From a virus: DNA of 42,472 bases. How positions within the stretch are numbered: position 1 is the stretch's first letter; every line of letters starts with the position of its first letter. Location of the stretch: UHGV virus genome UHGV-0206950; one strand, 5' to 3'. Made by a program: the position numbers and the translations under genes. The notes beneath the pieces are model-generated. The model was not told the origin of the DNA. It saw nothing but the letters and a program-made list of their open reading frames with translations, and made no database searches. Positions 2,618 to 42,471 of this stretch are shown here, in pieces.

Positions 2618-2655
2618 AACGCCTGACCAGCGTGAAATACAATGAGGAAAGACCA

Positions 2656-8449: not shown

Positions 8450-8739
8450 AGAAAATCGATCTCACCAAACAGGCTCGCGGTCGCATGTGCACTGTGCGCA
8501 TTCCGGGTATCTGCAATTTTAATCCAGAAACCAGCGTTCTTGCCCATTATCGCATGAGTGACACCTGCGGGATGGGAATCAAACCACATGACATGCAAGG
8601 CGCAATTGCTTGCAACTGTTGTCATGACGTAATCGATGGCCGTGTAAAAACCGATATTGATCAGGACACCCTGAGGCTATATCACGCCGAAGGTGTTTTC
8701 CGTACCCAACAAATCTGGAGAGAGGAGGCGTTTATATGA
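8446..8739 (+). CDS. YbcO-like DUF1364 protein (putative metal-binding nuclease of lambdoid nin regions)
   Basis: MKKIDLTKQARGRMCTVRIPGICNFNPETSVLAHYRM...IACNCCHDVIDGR closely parallels E. coli DLP12 YbcO (AARGRECQVRIPGVCNGNPETSVLAH...IACSACHDEID); ATGA overlap with upstream gene. Confidence 0.65.
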   Translation: MKKIDLTKQARGRMCTVRIPGICNFNPETSVLAHYRMSDTCGMGIKPHDMQGAIACNCCHDVIDGRVKTDIDQDTLRLYHAEGVFRTQQIWREEAFI

Positions 8740-9314
8740 TTAACCCATCAACGACAGGAAAAGGTGGTGAAATGCTGCGATTAAACACCCTCGAGTCAGT
8801 CTGGATTCAGGGTAAACTTCGTATGTGGGGCCGATGGTCATATATTGGATCCGGCTCAGGTGGTCACATGTTTAATAACCTTCTCGCGTCAAAAAAAGTC
8901 AGTAAAACGGCCATTCAGCAGGTGTTGAAGCACCTCAAATCATCAGGCCTGGATCACGGTGAACTGATGTCATATTTTCTGGACATGCTTTCCGGAAAAG
9001 AAAAAAGCAACCTGGCGTTCTGTACCGATGAAGAAGCGTTGACCATCAACGCTGTACTCAGCGGTGTCCTTGTGCAGTCAGGGCATAAGAAGTTATACGC
9101 TCTTATTGAAGATCGTTATATCAAGCGCCTTAGCAAAAAGGCGATGGCCAGAGACTTAAATGAAAAACATCCTGAATGGTGCTTGCGTACATGTGAGAGC
9201 CGGATCGATGTTTGGCTAAATTTTGCAGAATCGATGCTTTACGCGCCAATGTGTGACGCATTCGATAAAAAAGTTGATCGATTCCGGTTGCAAAGTTGCG
9301 CGGGGATTGCTTGA
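8736..9314 (+). CDS. late-gene antitermination protein Q-like
   Basis: position (last early gene before terminator-leader-lysis cassette), size 192 aa, ATGA coupling; family assignment by resemblance only. Confidence 0.5.
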   Translation: MINPSTTGKGGEMLRLNTLESVWIQGKLRMWGRWSYIGSGSGGHMFNNLLASKKVSKTAIQQVLKHLKSSGLDHGELMSYFLDMLSGKEKSNLAFCTDEEALTINAVLSGVLVQSGHKKLYALIEDRYIKRLSKKAMARDLNEKHPEWCLRTCESRIDVWLNFAESMLYAPMCDAFDKKVDRFRLQSCAGIA

Positions 9315-9394: not shown

Positions 9395-9813
9395 CTGGAG
9401 GATAGAAAAATGAAATAGCTAAACGGAAAGACCGCGTTGGATGCCATATTTTGGCAACGTGACGACAGCGTTAATCTGGTCGGGCTCCCATGGCGACGTA
9501 GTGAGGGAGAGGAAGCTTAAAGCATCACTTAGTTACGGCTGGCGCCCGGTTTAACGCATCAGTAGCCCGACAAAGAGATAGTGCGCCGCGACACTCACAG
9601 CGGCAACGATTAACGAGCCTCGGTATTTACCGGGGCTTCATCATATTCAGGGCTCGCTGACGGACGGCTCATAACCCAATCCGACAGGCGCTTGCGCAGA
9701 GCCCGCCTCTATATCAGGCTCCGGGTTCCATCTTCGACATTGCCCCGTAGCATATACAGCCCGATAGCCTGATCCCTTACAACACACAGCGCCCCGATTG
9801 CGGAGGTGCGGAT

Positions 9814-22038: not shown

Positions 22039-23433
22039 ATGACAATCGTAAATATCAATGTGTCGGTGACCAATCCGCCAAAACCATCTCAGTTATTAAA
22101 GTCTGGTGCGATGATCTCCACTGGAGGGACCACGTTGGCGGCGGGCAGTTATCAGTTGCTGACGTCAAAGGATGATCTAAAAAATATCGTCGCGCCAGCG
22201 AAGACAATTTCTACTCTTACATGGGCTGCCAATGTTGTTACGGTGACTCTTTCAGAAAATCATGGCTGGTCCAGTGGGGACCAAATCCCGGTAGTCATTT
22301 CTGGCGCGACTCCGGAAGCGTATAACGGGGCTTACACTGCCTCCGTTACGGGGAATAAAACCTTTACCTATACGCTAAGCAGCGATCCTGGAACTGCAAC
22401 AGTAATGGGTACGGTGACAACAGTTGCGGCTGGGGAAATCCAGCAAATGAATACCACATACTGGGGGCAGGGTTCTAATCGGGCTGTTTACGTTCTCGAA
22501 CTGGGAGACATAAGTGTTACATCGGCGATTGCGGCATTGAGCGATTTTATCGATAAAGATATTTCCCTCGGCAACACGTACCAGAAATTCTTCTCCTACT
22601 TGGTCCCACGTGAATGGGATACTGAGCCAACGTTTAAGACCATGACGGGCCTGTATACCAGCCCGGCGTCACTGGTGTATTTCTTTGTCACCACCACGAT
22701 CTCGACCTACCCGGCGTGGGTCACCACCAAAAATAAATCGGTCTTTGCAGGTGTCGAATCCCCAAACATCCCTGCAGGCGAGTTTTCCATGGCCGCCTGG
22801 TTCCAGTCCTCTCTGGCAAACGACCCAGGCTCATCAAATATGGTTCCGCCAATGGCGTACCGTTTTGGATACGGCGTAACCGAGTACCCGGTAGAAGGGA
22901 ATGGCACGCTGCTTAAACAACTCCAGGACAACAGCATCAATTACGTTGGCACCGCCGCGGAAGGTGGGCTGAGCAACAAAATGCTGGTGGCTGGTCACAT
23001 GCTGGACGGTAATCCGTTCAATTACTGGTATTCCGTGGCGTGGACTGCAATCAACCTCGAGCTCGATCTGGCTAACGAAATCATCAACGGTTCAAACACC
23101 ACCGTTAACCCGCTGTACTACGAGAAGAACGGCATCGACCGCCTGCAGCGCCGCGCGCTGAAGACTCTGCGCAATGGCATCAGTTACGGACTTATTCTCG
23201 GGCGTGTGATTGGTACTGGTCTGACGCAGCAGGATTTCAACATCGAATACGAGAAAGGCACATATGCCGGGAACGCGGTTATCAACGCTGTGCCGTTCGC
23301 GGATTACACCAGCCTGAATCCGTCCGATTACGCCGATGGCAAATATAACGGCCTGAGCGCCGTAATGACACCGCGCCGCGGCTTCGAATCAATCACGTTT
23401 AACGTGAACGTAACCAACTTTGTAGGGGCGTAA
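22039..23433 (+). CDS. contractile tail sheath protein
   Basis: 464 aa, first of sheath-tube-chaperone-tape measure series. Confidence 0.55.
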   Translation: MTIVNINVSVTNPPKPSQLLKSGAMISTGGTTLAAGSYQLLTSKDDLKNIVAPAKTISTLTWAANVVTVTLSENHGWSSGDQIPVVISGATPEAYNGAYTASVTGNKTFTYTLSSDPGTATVMGTVTTVAAGEIQQMNTTYWGQGSNRAVYVLELGDISVTSAIAALSDFIDKDISLGNTYQKFFSYLVPREWDTEPTFKTMTGLYTSPASLVYFFVTTTISTYPAWVTTKNKSVFAGVESPNIPAGEFSMAAWFQSSLANDPGSSNMVPPMAYRFGYGVTEYPVEGNGTLLKQLQDNSINYVGTAAEGGLSNKMLVAGHMLDGNPFNYWYSVAWTAINLELDLANEIINGSNTTVNPLYYEKNGIDRLQRRALKTLRNGISYGLILGRVIGTGLTQQDFNIEYEKGTYAGNAVINAVPFADYTSLNPSDYADGKYNGLSAVMTPRRGFESITFNVNVTNFVGA

Positions 23434-36369: not shown

Positions 36370-36594
36370 TTAAATAGCTCCGAAATCAGGTTTTTCTTCT
36401 GTGCTAGTCTGTACGGTGATCTGTCCGTTTAATACAGCGTTAATGTGCGTCCAGGTAACCATCGGGCGACCTTCCCTATCGGGTATGTACGAGACGCCGC
36501 CACGGTCGAGAATTTCCCTTTGTTTGGATGCCTTCTGATAACCGGTAAACTCAATCAGTTCTGCGTCTGTTAGCAGATCGTTTTCTCTGGTCAT
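36370..36594 (-). CDS. putative excisionase / small DNA-binding protein
   Basis: 74-aa ORF immediately upstream of int in same operon. Confidence 0.45.
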   Translation of the reverse strand: MTRENDLLTDAELIEFTGYQKASKQREILDRGGVSYIPDREGRPMVTWTHINAVLNGQITVQTSTEEKPDFGAI

Positions 36595-36787
36595 GTTGGT
36601 CTTTCCTCATCATCCGGTACACGGCGTCATCAGCATCACTGCATGCGCGTTCGATGTCGGACTGGGTCAGAGTCTTCTTTCGTACGCTTGCCGATAACCG
36701 GCCAATCTTTATATCGAAATCTGTGAGCAGAGTAGCTCCGGGTTGCCATCGCAGCATTGCAGCCTCCAGTGTTTGGTGAGGCCACAA
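36551..36787 (-). CDS. hypothetical protein (78 aa)
   Basis: ORF in early-left operon; 44-nt overlap with downstream gene makes extent uncertain. Confidence 0.3.
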   Translation of the reverse strand: MWPHQTLEAAMLRWQPGATLLTDFDIKIGRLSASVRKKTLTQSDIERACSDADDAVYRMMRKDQHDQRKRSANRRRTD

Positions 36788-37546: not shown

Positions 37547-39819
37547 TATGCATTCTCCTGGGATTTGTTCAGTTCAGCGATACGTTCATCTTTGATGGTT
37601 GTCAGGCGACGCAGGCGCCCACTTAAATAGCGCGCATGTTGCGTGTCACCCTTCGCCTCTGCGTCCTTGCGATGCACCTCTGCTTCACGGGCAATCGAAG
37701 AATAAACCTTGTTGATCTCGTTCTCTGACACAGCTGATGCAAGGGTGTTTGCGACTTTGGTCAGTTTATCGTCCAGTTCCTGACGTACGCGGGCTGCATC
37801 CTCTGCGTTTTCGCTGGCGTTTTTGAGCGCAAATTCAGCTTTATTTTTCTGGCGATATTCCGGGTTATCGTACAGTCCCATGAAAATGTCAGCGCAGAAA
37901 CCAAGTGCAGACAGCGCTTTTTTGGTTGCGTCAGTCAGTGATTTTTTTGTCGCTTCACCATCGCAGATAGGGCCGTATTTACTGCCGTAGATATACGGGG
38001 TACACCCGAATGAAATCTCTTCACCGCGCGCACCATTCCGGATGTACCAAAGTCTGATTTTGATAACGTGGTGTTTCTCTGTCAGGATGCCGCCTACACC
38101 GTCGGGGATAAACTCCCATGTATTGTTACCGTCAGTCCCTTTGACTGTGCGAGTAATTGGCGCGCCATCGTCAAAGCGTTCCTCCAGAATATCGACACCC
38201 CAGCCGATACCTTTCGGACCAAATTCGCGGGTGGCGATCATGGTCATGTAGGTGCCATTGATTGAGGTTCCACCGCCATTCACAGAGAACGCGGAGGTAA
38301 AGCGTTCGTCTGTTTTGAATACTTCTTTCCACAACTCCAGGTTGTCGCTTTCGCCAGCCTGCATTTCATTAATGCTTTTAACCAGTTCGGACGCCTGGGG
38401 AAGCTGTTCTTCACGCTTAACACGCTCGACGAGCTGATCCGCATCCTGAACAATTGTTTTCACTTTATCACTCAGATTTTCATCCTGTTGAACGGTTGTA
38501 TCTTGGCTGGTCGCATATACTCCGTACCCCATATTATTTAGCGTTTCACGAGCTTGTTCCGCCTGGTCTTCTGTAACTCTTTCCTGTTCTGCCACTTCCG
38601 TTTTTTCACCTTCATTTGAGGCTGTTTCAGGCATAGTTCCATCACGCGAAAGCGTTTTGTCATCTTGGGTTGAATCCTGGGGTTGGGTATTGGTTTTAAC
38701 CCATTTAGGATCATCAGAGTCGCTGATACCGTCCACATATTCGCCGCGTTCTGCCGCAAGCTGCTTGCCGGTTCTTTCTGCATCCGTTTCGGCACATTCG
38801 AGTTGACCATGTTCAGCCAGCCATGAATCAATATGGCGTCGCAGTGACTCAGGGAAATGGTATGTATCTTTAGATGGGACATTCTGAATAACCCCAAAGA
38901 TACTCGGGCGGTCATATTTGAGAATCTGCACGGTAGTACGCAATGCAGCTGACCAACGTTTGAAATCCTCCCGGTCATCGGAAATCATTTTTTCTGCATC
39001 ACGGAGATTGCCTGATAACACAGGCGCATCAGGCGCGATGGGAAGTAGGGCAACGGCAATTTCCTGATCCAGTGTTGCGTAGGTGTGTTTATAACTACGT
39101 TGTGGCGCTACAGCTACATTGTCATTTTTAACGCAGGTACTGAGTGATGATGTTTTGTTTGGTACCATCTCATCACGCTTACCTGGGTTTTCCAGCCAGC
39201 GTTTAATAAATTGTGAAATCGCAGCTTTACCCGGTGTCTGATCTTCAAAGTTTGCGTAAATGGCCTGAATGAGATTATTAAGGCCTTCAACATGCATATG
39301 CTGCACGGGTTCGTTATTGTGCAGCGCGTGGAGAATATTGAGATTAACCCGATCATCCTCATCAAAGGATTCATCGTTATTTTCCAGATTATCGAGATAA
39401 TCCAGCACCTGAGAGTAAAGAACTCCATCGATGGGAGAATCGCTGAACATAAGGACGGCCGCGAAGCGTTCCCGGGATGGTAGCTTTGCCAGATCGATAA
39501 TCTCGTTACTGGCTGGCAGGTTTGAAACGTTGGTCTCCGGCTCGTTGATGATCCATTTTTCCCCATCGAATGTGTGTGCCAGGGCAAATTGTTCATCGAA
39601 CTTACCAACAGCCGGCAGCGGCAGACCTTCAGCATGTTCCCATAACTTGGGTTTGAAATAGTTGTCACCGTTGGCAGGGTAGGCTTCCCAGAGTTTGCCG
39701 GTCATGATGCTTTCTGCCACTTTTTTGTTTGGCGCATCAATTGCGATCGCCAGTTGAACGGCCCCGCAATCTTTAACCGCTGATTTTTTTGGCTCAAATA
39801 AGCCGTTGTAGATGGTCAT
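37546..39819 (-). CDS. Erf-family single-strand annealing protein with about 480-aa N-terminal extension of unknown function
   Basis: C-terminal third carries Erf-like block (…KSLTDATKKALSALGFCADIFMGLYD; cf. P22 Erf …SSYARKYCLNGLFGIDD); start preceded by GAGGAAAGACCAATG motif. Confidence 0.5.
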   Translation of the reverse strand: MTIYNGLFEPKKSAVKDCGAVQLAIAIDAPNKKVAESIMTGKLWEAYPANGDNYFKPKLWEHAEGLPLPAVGKFDEQFALAHTFDGEKWIINEPETNVSNLPASNEIIDLAKLPSRERFAAVLMFSDSPIDGVLYSQVLDYLDNLENNDESFDEDDRVNLNILHALHNNEPVQHMHVEGLNNLIQAIYANFEDQTPGKAAISQFIKRWLENPGKRDEMVPNKTSSLSTCVKNDNVAVAPQRSYKHTYATLDQEIAVALLPIAPDAPVLSGNLRDAEKMISDDREDFKRWSAALRTTVQILKYDRPSIFGVIQNVPSKDTYHFPESLRRHIDSWLAEHGQLECAETDAERTGKQLAAERGEYVDGISDSDDPKWVKTNTQPQDSTQDDKTLSRDGTMPETASNEGEKTEVAEQERVTEDQAEQARETLNNMGYGVYATSQDTTVQQDENLSDKVKTIVQDADQLVERVKREEQLPQASELVKSINEMQAGESDNLELWKEVFKTDERFTSAFSVNGGGTSINGTYMTMIATREFGPKGIGWGVDILEERFDDGAPITRTVKGTDGNNTWEFIPDGVGGILTEKHHVIKIRLWYIRNGARGEEISFGCTPYIYGSKYGPICDGEATKKSLTDATKKALSALGFCADIFMGLYDNPEYRQKNKAEFALKNASENAEDAARVRQELDDKLTKVANTLASAVSENEINKVYSSIAREAEVHRKDAEAKGDTQHARYLSGRLRRLTTIKDERIAELNKSQENA

Positions 39820-39864
39820 TGGTCTTTCCTCTTTGGTTACTGGCGCTGGTCTGGCGCCGGCTGA

Positions 39865-40188
39865 TCAAAATGGGATGTCGCTTTCCTGAACAGGGGTATG
39901 ATCAATGCACAGCAGTTGCTGAATTTTGTCGTCGACACGGTCAATCTGACGTTGTGCTTCTGCCGCAATCGTCTCTTTCTGTCCGCGCAGCTGGTCGACC
40001 TGCAGAGCAATGATGTCGAATGGTTCAGGCTGGTTTATATCGATGGTAATTTCACGGGTTTCCAACAAAACGTAGGTGTCCGGAAAGTTGCGTGACATGT
40101 CACAGGTGGCAACGATGTATTTATCCGAAGAAAACGTTTGAGTGTGGTAGTGAATGTACAGTTTTACTGGAATGGCAAGCGCTTCCAT
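39865..40188 (-). CDS. hypothetical early-left protein (107 aa)
   Basis: ORF with AAGGAG SD. Confidence 0.4.
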   Translation of the reverse strand: MEALAIPVKLYIHYHTQTFSSDKYIVATCDMSRNFPDTYVLLETREITIDINQPEPFDIIALQVDQLRGQKETIAAEAQRQIDRVDDKIQQLLCIDHTPVQESDIPF

Positions 40189-40352
40189 AGCGGCTCCTTA
40201 GTGATGTATACTCAGAGCCGATCAGTGTTGGCTCTGTCCTGCATTGGTCTTTCCTCGCTACAGGGTTGGTCCCCTGTGGCACCTTCCTGGCGGATTGGTC
40301 TCCGCTGGGGTAAATCAGCCCACTCAGGTGGGCTTTTTTACGTCTAAAGTTT

Positions 40353-40368
40353 GCCGGTCTTTCCCGGC
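40353..40368 (-). promoter_or_regulatory. RNA hairpin GCCGG-GAAAGA-CCGGC (leftward-transcript sense)
   Basis: read directly; one of three hairpins sharing loop GAAAGA. Confidence 0.45.
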
Positions 40369-40401
40369 AGTCAGGGCTGGTCATGCCCATTGGTCTTTCC
40401 T

Positions 40402-40417
40402 CCCGGTCTTTCCCGGG
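40402..40417 (-). promoter_or_regulatory. RNA hairpin CCCGG-GAAAGA-CCGGG immediately 5' of a GAGGAAAGACCAATG initiation motif
   Basis: read directly. Confidence 0.45.
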
Positions 40418-40901
40418 GTCAGAGCAGGTCAGGCTCTTTGGTCTTTCCTCGCCGCTTCCCTCTCTTCGAGGGCTTCGGTTTTCACCGAAGGGTCACAAAA
40501 TAGTTACTGTGTAAAAAAGGAGCCCATCGTAGGGACTGGGCAAAGACTACACACAGCAATGGCGATATATGAATGTGGCGCCAGATGCTTATCTTCTGGT
40601 TGCCGTCTAAGCGGCTGCAATTCACCACAATCAAAAAGAGCGAGCCGCGCCCAATTACACGCCGGGATTGGGATTCCCTAATTACAGACGTTGGCCACTA
40701 TGGTTTTTAACGCCCGCGCTCTTTGATTGTGGTGCTCCGTTAACGGGGAGCAGGCGGCTCTTTAAGCCTCACGGGGCGTTCTATGCGCGGGATACTGAGC
40801 GAAACCGCGTTCACTGCCGTGACAGGGGGCTTGTGTGGCGTTACGCACCCATTGCTCTTACCTTCCACCACTGCAACGAATCGAATTCAGTTGCGGTCTT
40901 T

Positions 40902-40917
40902 CCCGCATGTCATCGTA
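40902..40917 (-). promoter_or_regulatory. RNA hairpin UGCGG-GAAAGA-CCGCA
   Basis: read directly. Confidence 0.4.
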
Positions 40918-40943
40918 CTGTCGGCGACCCGAGGCAATTCTCG

Positions 40944-41090
40944 TTAAATAAGTCCGCTTGCCAAGTCTTCGCGGATACATGCTGAAGCCATCCAGAAGAC
41001 CCATTCTGATTCCCAAAGGTACTGATACGCGGTTTCCCACGAGACCCCATGAGATCTGATCAGCATATCGGTCATGTCTTTCTTGGTCAT
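40944..41090 (-). CDS. small ORF (48 aa), first ORF of early-left transcript
   Basis: ATG preceded by TTGAGGAAAGACCAATATG, identical in form to the motif in front of the gene at 22; below the 60-aa ORF-track cutoff. Confidence 0.3.
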   Translation of the reverse strand: MTKKDMTDMLIRSHGVSWETAYQYLWESEWVFWMASACIREDLASGLI

Positions 41091-41187
41091 ATTGGTCTTT
41101 CCTCAATTCGGCGTCTGTCTTTCCAGACCGTCAGAACGTTTTTCTGAACAACTGCCGCGTGGTTAGTGCGTCGTTGATGGATTGAAG

Positions 41188-41203
41188 CTTAACTAAAGGT
41201 AAG
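41188..41203. promoter_or_regulatory. operator OL1: CTTAACTAAAGGTAAG (reverse complement CTTACCTTTAGTTAAG)
   Basis: 16-bp interrupted palindrome, 14/16 identical to the site in the cI-cro intergenic region. Confidence 0.55.
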
Positions 41204-41222
41204 CTAATGGTCAACGGTTTTG

Positions 41223-41238
41223 CTTAAAAAAAGTTAAG
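41223..41238. promoter_or_regulatory. operator OL2: CTTAAAAAAAGTTAAG, a 16-bp interrupted palindrome sharing half-site GTTAAG
   Basis: read directly; 19 bp from OL1; -35-like TTGACC (rc of 41209-41214) just upstream on leftward strand. Confidence 0.45.
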
Positions 41239-41276: not shown

Positions 41277-41678
41277 TTATTTTTTTTGTGATTTTTTTCT
41301 GGCAGCTAATAGCTCTTCGAAAAGAGCGTTGAAGTCATCAACCTTTTGCTCTAATTCAGCCAAATGCCGGTCTTTTTCTGACTCAGGAAGGGAATCGAAA
41401 AGCTCAAGTAGTTTGAGTTGGCGATCGTCTAACTCTGTGGGAATTTCCGATGGGGGTAATGGAGTTTGGTCATCATCTCCATAAAGTAGCCACGTAGGAG
41501 AGCACTTCAGGACTTTACTTAATGCGAATAGATTCTTGCCACGGGGCTGCGTTTCACCGCTTTCCCATTTAAATATAGTGACGTGTGAAACCTTCACAGC
41601 ATCCGCGAGTTTCTGCTGTGACATATCTAATTGTGTTCTTCTGCTGCGGATACGGTCGTTCAGTTCGATGTTCTTCAT
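41277..41678 (-). CDS. CI-like repressor, XRE-family HTH only (no S24 peptidase domain)
   Basis: HTH QQKLADAVKVSHVTIFKWESGETQP; 133 aa, acidic helical C-terminus without Ser/Lys protease motifs; divergent from cro-like gene. Confidence 0.7.
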   Translation of the reverse strand: MKNIELNDRIRSRRTQLDMSQQKLADAVKVSHVTIFKWESGETQPRGKNLFALSKVLKCSPTWLLYGDDDQTPLPPSEIPTELDDRQLKLLELFDSLPESEKDRHLAELEQKVDDFNALFEELLAARKKSQKK

Positions 41679-41717: not shown

Positions 41718-41756
41718 TTGTAGTTTCCAAACAAACGTTAATACCTGGAGGTGTGT

Positions 41757-41960
41757 GTGCTTACAAAAGATGCAATAAATTATTTTGGTAGTAAGGCCAA
41801 ATTGGCAAAAGCACTGGGTGTATCTCAGCCCGCAGTTTCTCGTTGGGGATTGCATATCCCAGAAAAGAGGGCCGCTCGTCTGGCTCTTATGACTGCTGGT
41901 GAGCTTGTATACGATCCATGCGAATACCAGGACATTTCAAAGACTGATGACGCAGCTTAA
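41757..41960 (+). CDS. Cro-like / YdaS-family HTH regulator
   Basis: KDAINYFGSKAKLAKALGVSQPAVSRWG...PEKRAARLALMTAGELVYDP matches YdaS/Cro-family pattern; GTG start 6 nt after GGAGGT. Confidence 0.55.
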   Translation: MLTKDAINYFGSKAKLAKALGVSQPAVSRWGLHIPEKRAARLALMTAGELVYDPCEYQDISKTDDAA

Positions 41961-42024: not shown

Positions 42025-42471
42025 GTGGAAAACCTCGACGAACTGAAAAGAGAAATCTTCAATTGGGCTGCTGAGCGCGGGCAGGAGCATGTTGCTATCG
42101 AGATCACTCGCATGTGGTTTCGAATGGGTGGCAATACCAGCTGCGTAAAACTTCACCCGATGGAGGATTCGAAAGGTAATGCTGACTGGCGGGCAATCAA
42201 CAACAACCGGCAGCAGATTTTTCGCTGGCTACGTGGTGAGACGAAAGCGGCAAGAATCAAAACTAAAGCGCTGGCCATGGCGATGGAAGCTGCATTGCCT
42301 GCGGAACGGTATGCACAGCTGGGAATGACCACTCAGCAGTTAATTTGCATTGCGATTCGTGATTTTGCCGCGGCGATTATTGCTCTGTTGCTTGATGCAA
42401 GGGATCGACCCCAGCGGATAGCACAGGCATTACAAGCCATACAGGAAACACAGCGCCTGACCAGCGTTTAA
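42025..42471 (+). CDS. YdaT-like / cII-position regulatory protein (148 aa)
   Basis: GTG start with GGAGA upstream; follows YdaS-like gene as in Rac ydaS-ydaT. Confidence 0.45.
   Translation: MENLDELKREIFNWAAERGQEHVAIEITRMWFRMGGNTSCVKLHPMEDSKGNADWRAINNNRQQIFRWLRGETKAARIKTKALAMAMEAALPAERYAQLGMTTQQLICIAIRDFAAAIIALLLDARDRPQRIAQALQAIQETQRLTSV

Follow-up and report, generated by a model that had tools for sequence, protein, structure and literature searches.

A small antisense RNA gene and a shared start-site block in the early regions of a lambdoid phage

The virus genome UHGV-0206950 (42,472 nt; this whole stretch is hereafter termed the window, and all coordinates refer to it) represents a complete lambdoid temperate phage. 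A short sequence, the 9-mer GGAAAGACC, recurs before several early genes and in the leader of the leftward early (pL) operon, and a sequence-only reading of the window took it as an RNA-level signal, namely a binding site for an antiterminator or a translational regulator, a boxB/put-like element, or a translational enhancer. Which molecule reads this sequence, and do all of its copies belong to a single signal? We found a conserved structured RNA gene on the plus strand of the pL leader (40220-40339), and the seed of this antisense small RNA (sRNA) is the exact complement of the block that covers the ribosome-binding sites (RBSs) of five early genes. It is probable, in our view, that the sRNA represses this early-gene regulon by occluding the shared RBS, as a variant of the c4/sar-type RNA control of phages. 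Among the options above, a translational regulator came closest: the signal is tied to translation initiation, but the regulator indicated is an antisense RNA, not a protein or an antiterminator.

A block shared by the starts of early genes

An exact scan of the whole window detected 12 copies of GGAAAGACC against 0.26 expected, a number reached by none of 100 shuffled sequences, and the enrichment proposed earlier (at least ten copies against about 0.3) thus holds. Three copies are on the plus strand in the rightward operons (10, 2646, and 9425) and nine are on the minus strand in the leftward pL operon (36598, 39821, 40246, 40356, 40392, 40405, 40440, 40895, and 41094). All 12 are in the sense of the local transcript, as had been noted. 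Sorted by context, eight copies belong to blocks of the Shine-Dalgarno (SD) type, three sit in GC-stem hairpins with a GAAAGA loop, and the copy at 9425 falls in neither class. The two contexts, both of which the sequence-only reading had recognized, are real.

The SD-type block is 13-15 nt long, reads GAGGAAAGACCAA, is mostly followed by T(A)TG, and covers the SD sequence together with the start codon. Five blocks lead real starts. The block CGAGGAAAGACCAAT at 7-21 on the plus strand precedes the gene for a protein of 74 aa (22-246), and that at 2644-2658, also on the plus strand, precedes the gene for a protein of 226 aa that follows dnaB (start at 2656). On the minus strand, the blocks at 36596-36608, 39817-39831, and 41091-41104 precede the excisionase gene xis (start at 36594; PHROG excisionase), the gene of a 757-aa exonuclease (start at 39819; phrog_2489 exonuclease, initially called Erf-like), and an open reading frame (ORF) of 48 aa (41090-40944), respectively. 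The remaining three copies (40244-40256, 40388-40402, and 40438-40452) are non-coding and lie in the pL leader on the minus strand. Four of the motif-led starts listed from the sequence alone (22, 2656, 39819, and 41090) could be retained, while the xis copy (36598-36606) had been missed and two further starts had to be withdrawn: in relatives, the ATG at the 40244 and 40390 copies is replaced by AAAG, AACG, or AACGAC with the block kept, and these two are therefore not translation starts. At the copy of 40388-40402, hereafter the decoy, relatives read AAAG, AACG, or AATG, and the copy at 40438-40452, part of a tandem-duplicated decoy unit, has no ATG.

Across 34 related loci, the block recurs at xis, the exonuclease gene, the 74-aa gene, and the gene after dnaB, as well as before extra genes, and its positions 3' of GAGG are conserved as well as the SD itself. 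The isolated 9-mer in the late leader (9425-9433, plus strand) is present as reported; it forms no hairpin of the GAAAGA type, offers the sRNA only 9 nt of complementarity, and was kept in two relatives only along with its flanks. With 0.26 copies expected by chance per genome, it could be a chance match.

An RNA gene antisense to the pL leader

The block copy at 40244-40256, formerly read as the start of a micro-ORF on the minus strand, is on the plus strand the seed TTGGTCTTTCCTC of the sRNA, the exact complement of GAGGAAAGACCAA. The sRNA gene (40220-40339, plus strand; about 120 nt) is located between cI and the first conserved gene of pL and is antisense to the pL leader. From its 5' end, the RNA is predicted to comprise a helix (P1), an open UUUCCUC, two hairpins with the loop UUGGUC (H2, 40257-40280; H3, 40286-40310), GGGUAA, and an intrinsic terminator, AGCCCAC-TCAG-GTGGGCT followed by T6, which was detected by a terminator scan (40317-40339). 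Its putative promoter has a -10 element, TATACT (40207-40212, plus strand), which on the other strand adjoins the SD and ATG of the gene for a 107-aa protein. This element reads TATACT, TATAAT, or TAAAAT on the plus strand in all relatives, and its last base varies on the pL strand.

As judged from comparative analysis, this is a conserved structured RNA gene of the plus strand that had not been described. We aligned 20 distinct versions of the region in the plus sense, all sharing the window's type of seed (the T-seed; see below). The alignment (A1) contained a hexamer with no forms other than TATACT and TATAAT, a conserved 5' segment, TGGTCTTTCCTC without any variation, invariant TTGGTC loops, GGGTAA, and a terminator, and the seed was identical in all versions. 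The proposed pairs were formed in 94.4% of the alignment cells, compared with 83% after column shuffling and approximately 46-53% when the partners were slid, none of 500 shuffles was as good as the real alignment, and 12 pairs carried double changes. H2 has nine pairs, seven of them compensatory, with 100% of the cells paired, and H3 has nine pairs with 99.4% paired, including 58 G·U cells, whose counterparts on the opposite strand would be A·C. Altogether, the non-Watson-Crick cells comprised 70 G·U and 1 A·C, and the fold therefore exists on the plus strand, antisense to pL. A further helix, P1, was predicted by RNAalifold: GAUCAG(U/C)G pairs with C(A/G)UUGGUC, a U-A/C-G switch in it is compensatory, and UUUCCUC is left open. 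The terminator stems differ widely among relatives, with the T run always on the plus strand. The fold of the sRNA in the window amounts to -62.1 kcal/mol (z = -6.3), and a covariance model built from 29 diverse versions gave one strong match in the window (40243-40339, plus strand; 94.9 bits, E = 3e-24).

None of the 4227 Rfam families, including C4 antisense RNA (RF01695), reached its gathering score in the window, and a permissive Rfam scan returned only matches at chance level for the plus strand of 40253-40341 (isrB, rsmX, and anti-hemB; E = 0.67-5.8). In the literature, our search found no paper describing the motif, the sRNA, or a phage homologue of RprA. The sRNA region carries no annotation in the prophages of RefSeq. 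In BUCT708 (OM816834.1; L001 20573-20686), the one isolated phage noted as carrying the system, the annotation has a coding sequence for a 'hypothetical protein' where BLAST matches the sRNA region, which we regard as a mis-annotation.

Seven sites in trans are perfectly complementary to the sRNA over at least 13 nt, and all map to its nt 23-39, i.e., the seed. Five of the seven cover a real SD and start codon. The complement extends over 15 nt before the 74-aa gene (7-21, pairing with nt 24-38), the 226-aa gene, and the exonuclease gene, 14 nt before the 48-aa ORF, and 13 nt before xis; apart from the site before the 48-aa ORF, these sites are conserved in relatives. The two remaining sites, the non-coding copies at 40388-40402 and 40438-40452, are complementary over 15 nt each. 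Besides the search for exact complements, we used duplexes restricted to the seed; the energies of full-length RNAduplex predictions were inflated by large interior loops. With a seed fragment of 24 nt, the five targets ranked as the top five of 43 start regions (-23.4 to -34.6 kcal/mol), and the rest had a mean of -12.0 and a best value of -21.3 kcal/mol. Outside the seed, a site at 22068-22080 (plus strand), 30 nt inside the gene starting at 22039, is a perfect 13-nt complement (GACCAATCCGCCA) of the loop and 3' stem of H3. With about 0.14 such sites expected (an estimate) and H3 being variable among relatives, this match is probably due to chance.

The seed and the block change together. 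We scanned IMG/VR with the architecture of H2 and H3 only, the seed being left free, and detected homologues bearing a seed with a T-to-G change, TTGGTCTTGCCTC. The loci of these homologues have no GGAAAGACC block; instead, the early genes of both operons and the leader decoys read (A/G)AGGCAAGACCAATG, and the leader copies equivalent to the decoy of the window read GGCAAGACC. The 72 loci with the T-seed (...CTTTCC...) contained 401 blocks of the GAGGAAAGACC type and none of the GAGGCAAGACC type, whereas the 11 loci with the G-seed (...CTTGCC...) contained none of the former and 45 of the latter; the outcome was the same with a smaller set of loci. As in a compensatory-mutation experiment, here supplied by natural variation, four to six separate sites per genome changed along with the seed. 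The -10 element of the G-seed phages (TAAAAT or TATACT) keeps its place, 6-7 nt before the 5' end of the sRNA and beside the SD and ATG of the first downstream pL gene, though that gene differs. Furthermore, every fetched locus with at least three blocks has the sRNA (80 were recognized by pattern and five more by inspection and the covariance model). A more specific viral scan, over-fitted to the T-seed group, yielded no further seed class. Binding sites of CsrA were considered as well and rejected, as the G-seed block GAGGCAAGACC loses the GGA core.

Could the block be read by something other than the sRNA? An RNA-binding protein of the phage or the host might recognize the GAGGAAAGACC block in the mRNA sense, as in a T4 RegA-like operator, the plus-strand RNA being incidental or having another role. 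The blocks are strictly in the mRNA sense at start sites, a co-evolving protein would also lead to a concerted change of all block copies, and the early regions encode several small conserved proteins with no known function (74, 107, and 60 aa). Protein family scans of the early ORFs, however, identified no candidate RNA-binding protein, and a protein reader leaves unexplained both the structured, terminated RNA with its own -10 element and an open anti-block and the invariant UUGGUC loops complementary to the block. We thus regard a protein as an unlikely reader of the block.

The block might instead be nothing but an efficient SD sequence or translational enhancer, which pairs with 16S rRNA and was copied before genes of high expression. 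It does contain GAGG at the normal SD distance from the ATG, and the SAS elements of Cluster K mycobacteriophages, which are discussed below, were at first discussed along these lines (PMC3203893). On the other hand, three copies without a start codon are conserved, and so are the positions 3' of GAGG. In the second group of phages, every copy has changed from A to C along with the seed, though the hosts are presumably similar enterobacteria sharing the same 3' end of 16S rRNA. A plain translational enhancer, one of the options put forward from the sequence alone, is therefore extremely improbable.

Another explanation concerns recombination. In one relative (L019; IMG/VR 3300038405_000017), a segment equivalent to 41104-40895 of the window is deleted, and the junction, GAGGAAAGACCgcaac, is a fusion of the SD-type block at 41094 with the GAAAGA hairpin of the 40895 copy; the 48-aa ORF is thereby removed. 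The repeats therefore also act as points of recombination or deletion. Moreover, many blocks have, 13-16 nt upstream, a small intercistronic hairpin, termed hp1 here. The copy at 42452-42468 (plus strand) has the loop CTGACCA, and others are found at 2619-2633 (plus strand) and at 39842-39858, 40374-40388, and 40421-40437 (minus strand). Among the 59 distinct versions of hp1 in relatives, the stem varies (GCGC, GGGC, AGAGC, ACGC, GGTGT, and others) with the loop core GACC(A) kept, and the genes behind hp1 and the block differ from one relative to another. hp1 resembles the boxB of P22 but was rejected as a member of the boxB/N class; its GACCA may be linked to the complementary UUGGUC loops of the sRNA.

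It could thus be argued that the repeats are module-boundary or linker sequences, which promote the recombination of cassettes and are kept uniform by gene conversion. The exactness of the fusion in the deleted relative, the exchange of genes behind hp1 and the block, and the mosaic immunity regions of the relatives are in favor of this idea. Nevertheless, repeats of 13-17 nt are very short for gene conversion, and linkers leave the placement in transcript sense at SD distance, the structured sRNA, and the conservation of the hp1 loop unexplained. As an explanation in its own right this is very unlikely; as a side effect, recombination at the repeats is compatible with control by the antisense RNA.

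Hairpins and an RprA-like module in the pL leader

Four hairpins with a GAAAGA loop are found on the minus strand: TGCCGG-GAAAGA-CCGGCA (hairpin #4, 40352-40369), CCCGG-GAAAGA-CCGGG (hairpin #3, 40402-40417), TGCGG-GAAAGA-CCGCA (hairpin #2, 40892-40907), and GGTCTG-GAAAGA-CAGAC, preceded by CTGAC (hairpin #1, 41113-41129). Hairpin #1, which is near the 5' end of the pL transcript and contains the copy GGAAAGACA with one mismatch, was added in this study to the three hairpins of the sequence-only reading; the positions of two of those were right, and the third had been placed at 40902-40917. Hairpins #1 and #2 belong to the conserved 5' leader.

In homologues, the stems vary and the loop is kept. 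Nearly all relatives have hairpin #1, in which a C-G/U-A change is compensatory, and the stems of hairpin #4 read GCCCG/CGGGC, GCCGG/CCGGC, or GCTCG/CGGGC. The consensus consists of CUGAC, 0-1 nt, a stem of 4-6 bp (GUCUG/CAGRC, UGCGG/CCGCA, GCCCG/CGGGC, CCGG/CCGG, GAGG/CUUC, and others), GAAAGA, and the other side of the stem, and occurs one to four times per pL leader. The hexamer GAAAGA forms the loop in 32 distinct copies, and 32 of 35 distinct copies are in the pL sense. As loop variants such as GAAAGU and GGAAGA occur, the exact 9-mer is not the conserved unit of the hairpins. Importantly for the question of a single signal, the loops remain GAAAGA in the G-seed phages (L053, L068, L101, L113, and L126), in which the RBS block and the seed have changed. 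The hairpins therefore do not track the seed, and the hairpin and RBS copies of the 9-mer cannot be taken as one signal, as they initially were; the GAAAGA hairpins are a separate conserved RNA element of the pL leader.

Is this element a nut/put-like antitermination signal, which would allow transcription to read through the terminator of the RprA-like module described below? The hairpins are in the promoter-proximal part of the pL leader, upstream of a strong terminator that lies approximately 170 nt (short-form relatives) to 650 nt (the window) downstream of pL and has to be passed on the way to all downstream pL genes. Short GC stems that covary, a purine-rich, G-A-A-rich loop, and a conserved 5' flank are reminiscent of the boxA/boxB logic of lambda N/nut, and the loop is independent of the sRNA seed. 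The features of lambda N/nut that could be checked are nonetheless missing, and the hairpins were rejected as members of that class. Their loop is a hexamer, not the GNRA-like pentaloop on a 5-bp stem that defines boxB; the conserved 5' flank is CUGAC abutting the stem, and not a boxA; up to four copies occur per leader, two of the four in the window lie after the RprA-like terminator, and there is no such hairpin downstream of pR between cro and the next gene. Among 20 early ORFs searched against PHROGs (ten of them also against Pfam), we found no N-like protein and no antiterminator beyond the Q-like one, though a divergent protein could be missed. The boxB/put-like reading of the hairpins, which had been among the initial suggestions, is therefore rather doubtful. 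Separately, a hairpin CCCUC-GAAGA-GAGGG is located at 40458-40472 (minus strand), just downstream of the RprA-like terminator, and has the loop GUAGA or GAGGA in some relatives; its pentaloop GAAGA is the same as that of boxB in lambda nutL.

The leader lacks a convincing long ORF, as had been stated, and the 48-aa ORF appears to be genuine, the differences in one relative (L166) being mainly synonymous. This accessory ORF, the first gene of pL, is found only in some relatives and has no family match. Between the 48-aa ORF and the hairpin just described, the minus strand of 40512-40600 carries an RprA-like sRNA module with a strong intrinsic terminator. The match to Rfam RF00034 spans the full length of the model (47.1 bits, E = 2.7e-5) but does not reach the gathering score of 70 bits. 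The 3' half, AUUGCUGUGUGUAGUCUUUGCCC, and the terminator are nearly identical to those of E. coli RprA, while 23 central positions of the model are replaced by 5 nt. The module is best called RprA-like.

Parts of the leader (approximately 40507-41236) match 524 of 5426 complete E. coli genomes, all of the matches being unannotated, and the RprA-like stretch also matches some Stx and Klebsiella phages, again without annotation. The conserved 5' end of the pL transcript (41130-41178, minus strand) is near-identical in all relatives (alignment A2) despite unrelated promoters and operators upstream. In the RNAalifold prediction, a 15-bp helix joins ACUAACCACGCGGCAGU (41151-41167), a part of this 5' end, to the complementary RprA-like seed (40538-40560, minus strand); both sides are invariant, so that covariation cannot test this helix. 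In the short-form relatives, 169-175 nt extend from the pL start to the RprA-like seed and terminator and contain several small covarying hairpins. The RprA-like seed (GUCUUUGCC) pairs only partially with the motif or the hairpin loops. A segment of about 290 nt, which is found only in long-form leaders, contains an inverted repeat of 23 nt (40623-40645 and 40712-40734; 87% complementary, 66 nt apart), the arms of which include the boxA-like CGCTCTTT.

A leader that combines an RprA-like 3' half with a 5' end complementary to an RprA-type seed recalls the phage 'anti-sRNAs' AgvB and AsxR, phage RNAs that mimic or antagonize host sRNAs (PMC4104026). The module differs from RprA in its score below the gathering threshold and in its replaced central part, as described above.

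Proposed control of early genes and its counterparts in other phages

The genome is that of a cI/cro phage, with cI at 41277-41678 (minus strand), cro at 41751-41960 (plus strand), and a YdaT/CII-like gene at 42025-42471. The 74-aa gene heads a closely spaced series with repO and dnaB (gene identities by protein family scan), which is followed by methyltransferase genes, a NinB-like gene, a gene for a Q-like antiterminator (8736-9314), and the lysis and structural genes. The minus strand, leftward from pL, carries int, xis, a Gam-like gene, the exonuclease gene, and the 107-aa gene. In 23 relatives, the end of the window joined to its start is contiguous sequence (the end of ydaT, hp1, the block, and then the gene for the 74-aa protein). 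We therefore take the window as a circularly permuted or complete phage genome. Its close relatives occur as prophages in E. coli, Citrobacter, and Raoultella and on IMG/VR contigs, and a contig search with the 107-aa protein as the query returned only two loci. The only isolated phages with a match are the 'Stenotrophomonas' phages BUCT708 and BUCT709; the early region and the att-side genes of BUCT708 look enterobacterial.

The genes led by the block head closely spaced or overlapping genes (74aa-repO-dnaB, exonuclease-gam, and xis-int), so that one RNA might suffice to keep replication, recombination, and excision down at the same time. We propose the following course of events. A subset of genes in both early operons, i.e., the 74-aa gene, the 226-aa gene, xis, the exonuclease gene, and the 48-aa ORF, shares the initiation block GAGGAAAGACCAA(U)(A)UG, and the sRNA, presumably transcribed from its own promoter inside the pL leader and ended at its own intrinsic terminator, would carry the complementary seed UUGGUCUUUCCUC. 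On each mRNA led by the block, the sRNA would form a duplex of 13-15 nt that covers the SD and start codon and keeps the 30S subunit from binding, and the functions in replication, recombination, and excision would be repressed together. The contact could begin at the UUGGUC loops, which match GACCAA within the block and also the GACCA loop of hp1. The YUNR loop motif is common in antisense RNAs, and UUGG at the start of the UUGGUC loops fits it. Once pL fires, convergent transcription would yield a fully complementary leader together with two or three extra non-coding block copies, which would free the regulon by titrating or destroying the sRNA.

Several points weigh against this proposal. 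The 5' end of the sRNA is an estimate, the -35 element is poor, and a scan for consensus promoters did not call its promoter. In the predicted structure, P1 engages the UUGGUC half of the seed and only UUUCCUC is open, so that pairing with a target would need strand displacement or loop-loop nucleation. The sRNA seed complements one block copy by construction, and a block-reading protein that co-evolves would produce the same joint change. That change represents one evolutionary switch between two groups; many of the loci are overlapping pieces of related contigs, and their large counts are not independent events. Finally, the GAAAGA hairpins and the copy at 9425 are not explained by the model, and the counts of G·U against A·C do not single out a folding strand for the short hp1 and GAAAGA hairpins.

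Like the phage antisense/immunity RNAs c4, sar, and P4 CI, the sRNA is a structured RNA gene in the early/immunity region of a temperate phage and is complementary to RBS regions, with 13-15 nt of perfect complement over the SD and AUG of five genes. The c4 RNA of P1 and P7 (immI; PMC12197685) resembles it in pairing around the RBS, in complementary loops, and in repeated elements within the same region. The heteroimmunity of P1 and P7 is set by sequence differences, to which the two seed classes of this study may be compared. On the other hand, c4 is processed from a transcript of the same strand and controls one operon (icd-ant), whereas the present sRNA has a promoter of its own on the opposite strand, the complementary block precedes at least five genes, distributed over the two early operons, and there is no match to the Rfam C4 family. 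The small antisense RNAs sar of P22 and OOP of lambda, also located in early/immunity regions, reduce the expression of lysis-lysogeny genes (PMC12197685). They act only on the overlapping transcript in cis, while the identical 13-15-nt targets here are spread in trans. In P4, immunity is exerted by the CI RNA, a short sequence of which pairs with repeated complements in the early-operon leader; this RNA, excised from that same leader, brings about premature termination. The present sRNA differs in being encoded antisense and in having mostly start regions as its targets.

The closest counterpart of the block itself may be sought in mycobacteriophages. The SAS/ESAS elements of Cluster K phages are uniform blocks of about 13 nt that contain an SD and lie a few nt upstream of the starts of non-structural genes only, in one orientation; approximately half of the copies have an inverted repeat upstream, and a single odd copy lies away from gene starts (PMC3203893). 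Their function has been open since 2011 and is still unverified (PMC12699233). The phage of this study shares with them a uniform block before non-structural genes in one orientation and, with hp1, the inverted repeat upstream. Nevertheless, the SAS consensus GGGATAGGAGCCC is a different sequence and the phage is an enterobacterial lambdoid phage, so that the block is an analogue and not a member. No regulator is known for the SAS, whereas the odd copy of the block in the window is the template of a complementary RNA.

In the Cluster K phage Anaya, a single reversed SAS is located in a gene-free gap of 385 nt between gp96 and gp97 (L285 34845-34905; 59844-59904 of the record). Its sequence on the transcribed strand, GGCCUCCUAUCCC, falls within a 10-nt hairpin loop, and the hairpin is stable (z = -4.8). 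Conservation of this segment at the corresponding position extends to 122 mycobacteriophages, and in seven diverse members (including L286-L291) the loop CCUCCUAUCCC is invariant, with compensatory and G·U changes in the stems. A reversed copy is reported to be absent from TM4 and Pixie, phages of K2 and K3 (PMC3203893). By analogy with the sRNA seed, the reversed SAS of the Cluster K1 phages may be an anti-SAS RNA, which we offer as a lead only.

To our knowledge, antisense control in temperate phages is mainly known as one RNA acting on one overlapping gene (sar and OOP) or on one operon (c4 and P4 CI). Here, the comparative data point to one phage sRNA whose regulon, spread over two divergent early operons, is marked by one and the same block at the starts of key early genes. 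If so, the lysis-lysogeny switch of a cI/cro phage would have a second, post-transcriptional layer. There would also be a simple rule for prediction: where an RBS block is repeated, the strand opposite its one orphan copy should be examined for an RNA gene. More speculatively, some temperate phages may use a uniform RBS 'address' that is read by an sRNA gating replication, recombination, and excision, with the pair of seed and address acting as an immunity specificity; here there are two such classes. The SAS of Cluster K may follow this logic as well, and the SAS/ESAS elements of mycobacteriophages would then become directly testable.

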